Origin: Escherichia coli
GTDB lineage: Bacteria; Pseudomonadota; Gammaproteobacteria; Enterobacterales; Enterobacteriaceae
DNA: 64,000 nucleotides
Assembly: GCF_017348835.2 (NCBI RefSeq)
Contig: NZ_CP071375.1
Direction: 5' to 3' (one strand)
The translations under genes and the position numbers were made by a program. The notes beneath the pieces were generated by a model. That model made no database searches and was not told where the DNA came from. It saw only the letters and a list, made by a program, of their open reading frames with translations. Positions 60,391-60,758 of the stretch are shown one piece after another. Each line of letters starts with the position of its first letter. Positions within the stretch are counted from its first letter, which is position 1.

Positions 60391-60758
60391 TATAGGTCCT
60401 GGATGTGGGATTTTTTTATCCTGTTAGCGACCTTGACGAGTACCAAAAAGCGCGAAGTTCAACTATTGTTCTGTGGTGTTCTGTTGCGTGTTGACGGCAA
60501 AATTTTGCTGGCGTAACATGCGCGCACGATCACTCTAAGAGGACATTCGCCTTGGACACACCCAGTAGATACTGGCTCACTATCCTGTCATCCAGGATCA
60601 ACTCCTAAGGCTATCCCTTTTTGCTGATAGCCTTAGCGGTTGTCAGCGACCTCAATTTTCCCGTCGCGCTGAGTCAGGCTGTTTAATGGTCTGAAACCCA
60701 ATTTGTTTCTGTGTGCCCACCGAACTGTCCGATATTTTAAGCATTGGGAGTCCCGGTC

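Follow-up and report, generated by a model that had tools for sequence, protein, structure and literature searches.

Our analysis centred on the corA locus of a 64-kb window, by which we mean the whole stretch of Escherichia coli DNA that was analysed. The genes around the corA leader run in the order uvrD, a SAM-hydrolase-family gene, yigE (minus strand), corA, yigF, yigG and rarD. yigE is divergent from corA and no gene terminates in the intergenic region between them, a span of 370 nt that is 100 % identical to strain PE164. The corA leader was found in 5425 of 5426 complete E. coli genomes, at a median of one place per genome. Compared to K-12 MG1655, positions 60480-60775 of the window carry a single difference, which is one T in a T-run. 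This run (60655-60658), which falls in the loop of stem D, was seen to have four Ts in the window and five in K-12 MG1655. Most genomes matched at 99.7 % over a span of 371 nt, which suggests that the T5 allele may be the common form in E. coli.

Several features of the wider neighbourhood were also observed. Between uvrD and yigE, the minus strand of 58641-59543 holds a gene of 300 aa, which in PE164 is annotated by RefSeq as a 'SAM hydrolase/SAM-dependent halogenase family protein'. As the gap between uvrD and yigE is only ~146 nt in K-12 MG1655, the region containing this gene is a strain-variable insertion of ~1 kb. Directly past the uvrD stop lies a perfect 14-bp palindrome (TGCCGGATGCGGTGCGCCACACCGCATCCGGCA, 58600-58632), one of the seven long perfect hairpins of the window, which we take to resemble a REP-type element or a bidirectional terminator. 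On the other side of corA, yigF (61752-62132, minus strand) appears to be disrupted, its sole open ORF being one of 73 aa (61752-61973). In PE164, whose corA leader is an exact match to that of the window, yigF is a RefSeq pseudogene with an internal stop, and in K-12 the gene is intact at 381 nt (about 126 aa). An inverted repeat between the convergent corA and yigF (GGTGGCTTAG...CTAAGCCACC, 61717-61746) is probably a bidirectional terminator. The features of the leader itself, alongside the published mutations that fall within it, are given in Table 1.

Table 1. Positions, in the window, of corA, the elements of its leader and the Salmonella mutations mapped onto them
Feature	Position	Strand	Description
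corA promoter	60491-60519	+	-35 TTGACG (60491-60496), 17-nt spacer, -10 TAACAT (60514-60519)
Transcription start of the corA leader	60526-60528	+	Fixed to within 2 nt
Stem A (OFF state)	60549-60611	+	GCCUUGG (60549-60555) with CUAAGGC (60605-60611)
corL/ysgD	60552-60608	+	UUG start, 18 codons, UAA stop (60606-60608)
Stem-loop C	60599-60642	+	11-bp core and outer extension; anti-terminator (ON-state) element
rut region	60614-60665	+	Putative, by homology to Salmonella leader 89-140 (PMC5314796)
Stem-loop B (OFF state)	60621-60649	+	60621-60632 with 60638-60649, loop UUAGC
Stem-loop D (ON-state partner of C)	60646-60667	+	GCGAC (60646-60650) with GUCGC (60663-60667)
Stem-loop E	60674-60694	+	UCAGGC (60674-60679) with GUCUGA (60689-60694)
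Rho-dependent termination sites	60736-60745	+	In vitro E. coli U211, G216-U220 (PMC11552253)
corA	60759-61709	+	Mg2+/Co2+/Ni2+ channel, 316 aa (ORF list and RefSeq annotation)
M1* (G24-C26)	60549-60551		GCC; stem A partner of M1
M1 (G84C G85C C86G)	60609-60611		GGC; hairpin 5' arm
M2 (G105C C106G C107G)	60630-60632		GCC; hairpin 3' arm
M7 (T97/C99) + M5 (G121/G123)	60622/60624 and 60646/60648		Stem B
M5 (G121/G123) + M6 (C143/C145)	60646-60650/60663-60667		Stem D

The hexamers of the corA promoter matched the consensus at 9 of 12 positions in a consensus scan, and the oligos published for its replacement by PBAD and Ptet join precisely at this promoter (PMC11552253). A first-pass annotation of the same DNA had named the same two hexamers and located them near 60511-60540, which is ~20 nt too far downstream. 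The -10 region forms part of a block, GCGTAACATGCGCGCAC (60510-60527), which is kept upstream of corA across the Enterobacterales and is almost invariant (loci L002-L081); this degree of conservation is far beyond the need of a sigma-70 -10 hexamer alone. Published numbering and constructs were used to place the transcription start. The Salmonella numbering (G24-C26, G84-C86, T97/C99, G105-C107 and G121/G123) gives a +1 at 60526, with which the positions of the Salmonella mutations fit the window exactly. The names of the E. coli oligos corA41-71 and corA68-99 give 60528, with the oFM4 Ptet fusion joining at GATCACTC, and the extra T of K-12 gives 60527. The hairpin that had been annotated upstream of corA is found at about +80 to +111 of a leader of ~233 nt. 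Its proposed position downstream of the promoter was thereby borne out, and the location of the start, which could have left the hairpin upstream of the transcript, instead puts it within.

The 11-bp perfect stem described near corA is present in the sequence. Its core arms are CTAAGGCTATC (60605-60615) and GATAGCCTTAG (60626-60636), so that the hairpin occupies 60605-60636, 1 nt further left than the 60606-60637 originally assigned to it, and lies 123-154 nt, rather than 110-140 nt, upstream of the corA ATG (60759). The arms enclose a loop of 10 nt, CCTTTTTGCT (60616-60625; CCUUUUUGCU in RNA letters). An outer extension of 5 bp (60599-60603/60638-60642) continues the stem across a C/C mismatch, and a repeat search extended the hairpin to arms of 17 nt (60599-60615/60626-60642), which are 88 % complementary and form 16 pairs. 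The RNA of 60600-60645 folds at -18.5 kcal/mol, compared to -7.8 +/- 2.1 kcal/mol for 200 dinucleotide shuffles (z = -5.2), none of which folds equally well. The 64-kb window holds seven perfect hairpins of >=11 bp with loops of 3-20 nt, ~20 times more than the mean of 0.3 counted in 30 dinucleotide-shuffled versions of it. Taken together, the folding energy and the excess of perfect hairpins indicate that the hairpin exceeds chance expectation.

The 5' arm of the hairpin contains the TAA stop of a short upstream ORF, corL, which is preceded by a Shine-Dalgarno sequence (AAGAGGA, 60537-60543) and at whose position RefSeq annotates ysgD ('YsgD/CorL family') in both PE164 and K-12. In E. coli, replacement of the corL start by AGG raises corA expression and replacement by AUG lowers it (PMC11552253). 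All 79 aligned leaders have the TTG start and 74 have a corL of 18 codons, while the TAA occupies one common alignment column, in the 5' arm of stem C, in 78. The N-terminus of CorL is conserved as (M)DTPSRYWL and the residues encoded by its C-terminal half vary freely. A small hairpin inside corL (60582-60598, AUCCUG/CAGGAU; alignment columns 59-78) displays the strongest covariation of the leader, with a U-A to A-U exchange in 28-29 sequences, and 86.6 % of its cells are paired. The covariation of this hairpin, together with the free variation of the C-terminal half of CorL, suggests that the segment is constrained as RNA and not as peptide. The one leader among the 79 to have lost the corL TAA is that of Yersinia aldovae (L071, 749-1012; CACGAAGG), in which corL runs 7 codons further and ends at a TGA in the first bases of the stem C 3' arm.

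The hairpin forms part of a set of mutually exclusive stems. Stem A competes for its 5' arm, with which it shares 60605-60611, and has corL and a pair of small hairpins (60562-60575 and 60582-60598) inside it. Stem B takes the 3' arm, sharing 60626-60632 with stem C, and leaves the rut pyrimidines exposed. Kriner and Groisman reportedly published the founding structure-probing paper on the corA leader in 2015 (J Mol Biol). Later work in Salmonella (PMC5314796; Kriner and Groisman 2017) and in E. coli (PMC11552253; Vezina Bedard et al. 2024) described a leader that adopts either stems A+B or stems C+D. With A+B, the rut site is exposed and Rho stops transcription just ahead of corA, and with C+D the rut site is hidden and transcription reads through (PMC5314796, PMC11552253). 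Efficient translation of corL leads to stem B and impaired translation to C+D, whilst stem E tunes Rho (PMC5314796, PMC11552253); the Salmonella hairpin 152-172, which is equivalent to stem E, stimulates Rho and determines where termination occurs (PMC5314796). The E. coli termination sites were transferred to the window through the K-12 alignment and are precise to within 1 nt.

The match between the annotated hairpin and the published stem-loop C is base for base. In Salmonella, M1 and M2 each break stem C, and when the two are combined the pairing is restored (PMC5314796). In E. coli, the ON-state oligos convert CAACTC (60599-60604) to GTTGTG and GGTTG (60638-60642) to ACAAC (PMC11552253). 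These changes perfect the outer part of the hairpin and were 'expected to stabilize stem C', which identifies the hairpin as that stem. The OFF-state oligo rewrites the 3' arm of the hairpin, changing GATAGCC to GACACGG (PMC11552253). Reporter expression was severely decreased in the OFF mutant, a result consistent with sequestration of the rut site by stem C, and the Mg2+ response was partly lost in the ON mutant (PMC11552253). Expression of the ON mutant was lower, not higher, at low Mg2+, which the authors credit to better access to the corL Shine-Dalgarno sequence (PMC11552253). Formation of stem C in Salmonella sequesters the rut site and reduces both Rho-dependent termination and pausing (PMC5314796). 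The dependence on Rho in E. coli was established by ChIP, by in vitro termination at U211/G216-U220 that was stimulated by Rho/NusG, and by a Rho R66S mutant (PMC11552253). In the R66S mutant, regulation was merely reduced, from 3.3-fold to 2.4-fold, and so other factors contribute (PMC11552253). The response is to intracellular Mg2+ at entry into stationary phase and depends on the leader rather than the promoter, as regulation was preserved when the promoter was replaced and the leader kept (PMC11552253).

We conclude that the hairpin is almost certainly stem-loop C, the anti-terminator half of a translation-coupled, Rho-dependent attenuator of corA. The suggestion of the first-pass annotation that it could help to regulate the Mg2+ transporter gene as part of a leader structure is supported by its identity with this mutation-tested element. 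The hairpin has already been described in the corA leader of E. coli and Salmonella and is not new. What goes beyond the earlier annotation is the presence of mutually exclusive conformers, the location of the corL stop in the 5' arm and an output through Rho-dependent termination.

Folding of the full leader, which had been proposed as a check on the hairpin, returned a minimum free energy structure that includes both the hairpin and stem D. For the transcript from +1 to +175, the C+D fold has an energy of -55.4 kcal/mol and a forced A+B fold one of -51.3 kcal/mol. The two conformers are near-isoenergetic and the leader is energetically bistable. When the nascent transcript was folded at increasing lengths, its minimum free energy structure alternated: transcripts ending at +90 and +100 form stem A, those ending at +111 and +117 form stem C, the one ending at +124 forms A+B and the one ending at +142 forms C+D. 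When a ribosome-sized footprint centred on the corL stop (60591-60620) was kept from pairing, the fold switched to stem B, and stem C stayed when the footprint was set at the corL start or in the middle of the ORF. In these models, the footprint-constrained and nascent folds reproduce the published logic of the switch from sequence alone. We infer the exact geometry of the ribosome footprint, as well as the equivalence in behaviour between this strain and K-12.

We also took corA loci from 80 species of Enterobacterales, among them members of Escherichia, Citrobacter, Enterobacter, Klebsiella, Serratia, Yersinia, Pectobacterium, Dickeya, Erwinia, Pantoea, Hafnia and Edwardsiella. A leader with stem C was found upstream of corA in all 80. 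Seventy-eight of the loci were located via the -10 block (GCGTAACATGCGCGCAC) and two, L072 and L026, by direct pattern search; corL and stem C are present in both of the latter, and L026 is truncated by a contig end. L072, which is from Serratia sp. Ag1, has ~80 nt extra between stem E and the corA Shine-Dalgarno sequence compared to other Serratia.

In the alignment of 79 sequences, 96.7 % of stem C cells were paired, and this fell to <=41 % when the partner was slid by 1-3 columns. Four pairs of stem C have compensatory changes (C-G to U-A, and U-A to C-G or G-C). Most columns of the stem are invariant, with only a few species carrying compensatory changes, and much of the 96.7 % pairing is therefore conservation rather than covariation. 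Stem C also has 23 U-A to U-G changes, with which pairing survives only in the RNA of the plus strand, and 23 species have a U-C mismatch at the second pair from the base of its core (column 86/117). The other stems were similarly well paired: stem D in 100 % of cells, with three pairs showing compensatory change, stem E in 94.3 %, with two such pairs, stem A in 99.1 % (77 distinct leaders) and stem B in 93.9 %. Within the segment that stems B and C share, an A often changes to G, which leaves a U-G pair in stem C and a G-U pair in stem B, as a dual constraint predicts. The RNAalifold consensus consists of A+B+E, not C+D, a choice that fits the switch and a hairpin which is not the sole structure of the leader. 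The whole switch, from the -10 box through corL to stems A to E, is conserved in the 80 sampled species, which represents a modest extension of the published work.

A comparison of 60300-60900 with all 4227 models of Rfam 15 (cmscan, E <= 10) found no family that covers the corA leader. The sole matches were mir-76 (E 0.11) and AaHKsRNA54 (E 2.6), both of which are far under their gathering scores and at chance level.

We favour a switch that operates as follows. In the ON state, stems C and D bury the pyrimidine-rich rut site and RNA polymerase continues into corA. In the OFF state, stem A or a ribosome occupies the hairpin's 5' arm and stem B its 3' arm, leaving the rut site exposed, and Rho terminates transcription ~15-25 nt upstream of the corA start codon. 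The choice between the two folds is set by translation of corL. A ribosome at the corL stop is predicted to occlude the 5' arm and free the 3' arm for stem B, resulting in repression; as the stop lies inside the 5' arm, a ribosome that finishes corL would melt stem C and favour stem B and Rho termination. Poor initiation or elongation on corL, which has been reported at low intracellular Mg2+, leaves the 5' arm free, and stem C then forms once the 3' arm is transcribed, allowing expression of corA.

It is also conceivable, if rather unlikely, that this model is incomplete and that the regulated step is the dwell of the ribosome at corL termination or recycling on the hairpin arm, and not elongation. 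We raise this because all but one of the 79 leaders, that of Yersinia aldovae, have the stop in the 5' arm. Under such a reading, the CCCUUUU of the stem C loop could double as an anti-Shine-Dalgarno sequence for corL in stem A.

Other explanations of the hairpin were weighed against its identification as stem-loop C. With its 11-bp arms and 10-bp spacer, the inverted repeat could be a DNA operator, at which a dimeric transcription factor would act on corA or yigE, and both a perfect repeat within a divergent intergenic region and its strong sequence conservation would be expected of one. However, the hairpin is distant from both promoters, within the corA transcript (+80 to +111), and the U-G pairs found in 23 species, alongside a conserved U-G in the outer stem, break the dyad symmetry of the DNA and keep the pairing of the RNA. 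Furthermore, regulation survived replacement of the promoter when the leader was kept (PMC11552253) and published compensatory mutations in the RNA restore function (PMC5314796), which makes an operator extremely improbable. We consider it equally hard to credit that an adjacent gene is terminated by the hairpin, or that the hairpin is an attenuator or terminator stem of the intrinsic (Rho-independent) kind. Its stem is stable and located in a leader, and a terminator-like scan flagged two sites (60621-60649 and 60638-60651) that overlap its 3' arm and are followed by CCTCAATTTT or TCAATTTTCC. These sites correspond to the 12-pair stem B and a sub-stem of it, with a T-run that is weak and displaced, whereas the hairpin itself has no U-run past it, the plus strand continuing with CGGTTGTCAGCG and the minus strand with GAGTTGATCCTG. 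Termination by Rho has instead been mapped ~100 nt downstream, at U211/G216-U220 (PMC11552253). In addition, yigE is divergent and so no gene ends at the hairpin.

A further explanation is that the hairpin is mainly a determinant of processing or stability of corA mRNA, cut by RNase III or another nuclease. In its favour, Lim et al. are said to have found in 2012 that the abundance of corA mRNA depends on RNase III, and the extended stem reaches 16 pairs; the E. coli enzyme, however, is said to require a helix of roughly 22 bp, which is longer than the stem of the hairpin. The residual Mg2+ regulation of a Rho mutant suggests extra factors, such as ribonucleases (PMC11552253), although the mutational data link stem C to sequestration of the rut site and to pausing at the Rho site (PMC5314796). 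A role for RNase III could at most be an added function rather than an alternative, and as the main purpose of the hairpin we regard nuclease processing as very unlikely. A repeat or mobile element (REP-like) was also considered and rejected, as the leader is single-copy and syntenic with corA in every species examined.

In summary, our study established what the element is, where in the transcript it lies, that it is conserved, with covariation, across the order and that its two conformers have near-equal energies. CorA is the main constitutive Mg2+ channel of enterobacteria, and the leader of its gene is among the best-dissected cases of regulated, Rho-dependent termination that is coupled to an upstream ORF. 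No new biology follows from matching the hairpin to stem-loop C, which is of real functional importance, but the match shows that a reading of raw sequence can detect a genuine riboregulatory element. The leader has been characterized experimentally and is present in 80 of 80 sampled species, yet is without a family in Rfam 15.

Compared to the known corA leaders, the element of this window occupies the same locus as stem-loop C of Salmonella and E. coli, with a hairpin sequence identical to that of K-12, stems A and B as its alternatives and stems D and E as its companions, as in the published leaders, and a corL stop in the 5' arm. It differs from the K-12 leader by one T fewer in the stem D loop and otherwise in nothing of substance. 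The stem D loop of Salmonella would be ~3 nt longer, judging from the C143/C145 numbering.

The mgtA/mgtL leader is similar in its organization, as it has a stem A that forms a three-way junction around a short ORF, a stem B next to a rut site and a stem C as the alternative in the ON state. In Salmonella it is likewise subject to Rho-dependent termination, and expression is inverse to translation of the upstream ORF. However, it belongs to a different gene and has no detectable homology, in sequence or structure, to the corA leader, and the Mg_sensor covariance model (RF01056) gave no match to 60300-60900 at E <= 10; this model is presumably included in the 4227 that were searched. The mgtA promoter is regulated by PhoPQ, whereas that of corA is not Mg2+-responsive, and mgtL is rich in proline, whereas corL has a single proline codon. 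Unlike corA, mgtA of E. coli has had no involvement of Rho detected.

The classical trp, his and pheA attenuators are a looser parallel, in which the choice among mutually exclusive hairpins depends on where the ribosome stands on a short leader ORF. The corA hairpin plays the anti-terminator role, similar to that of the 2:3 hairpin. The corA switch differs from these attenuators in its signal, which is not the supply of charged tRNA for a run of cognate codons, and in its output, which is exposure of a rut site and termination by Rho ~100 nt downstream in place of a terminator hairpin with a U-tract.
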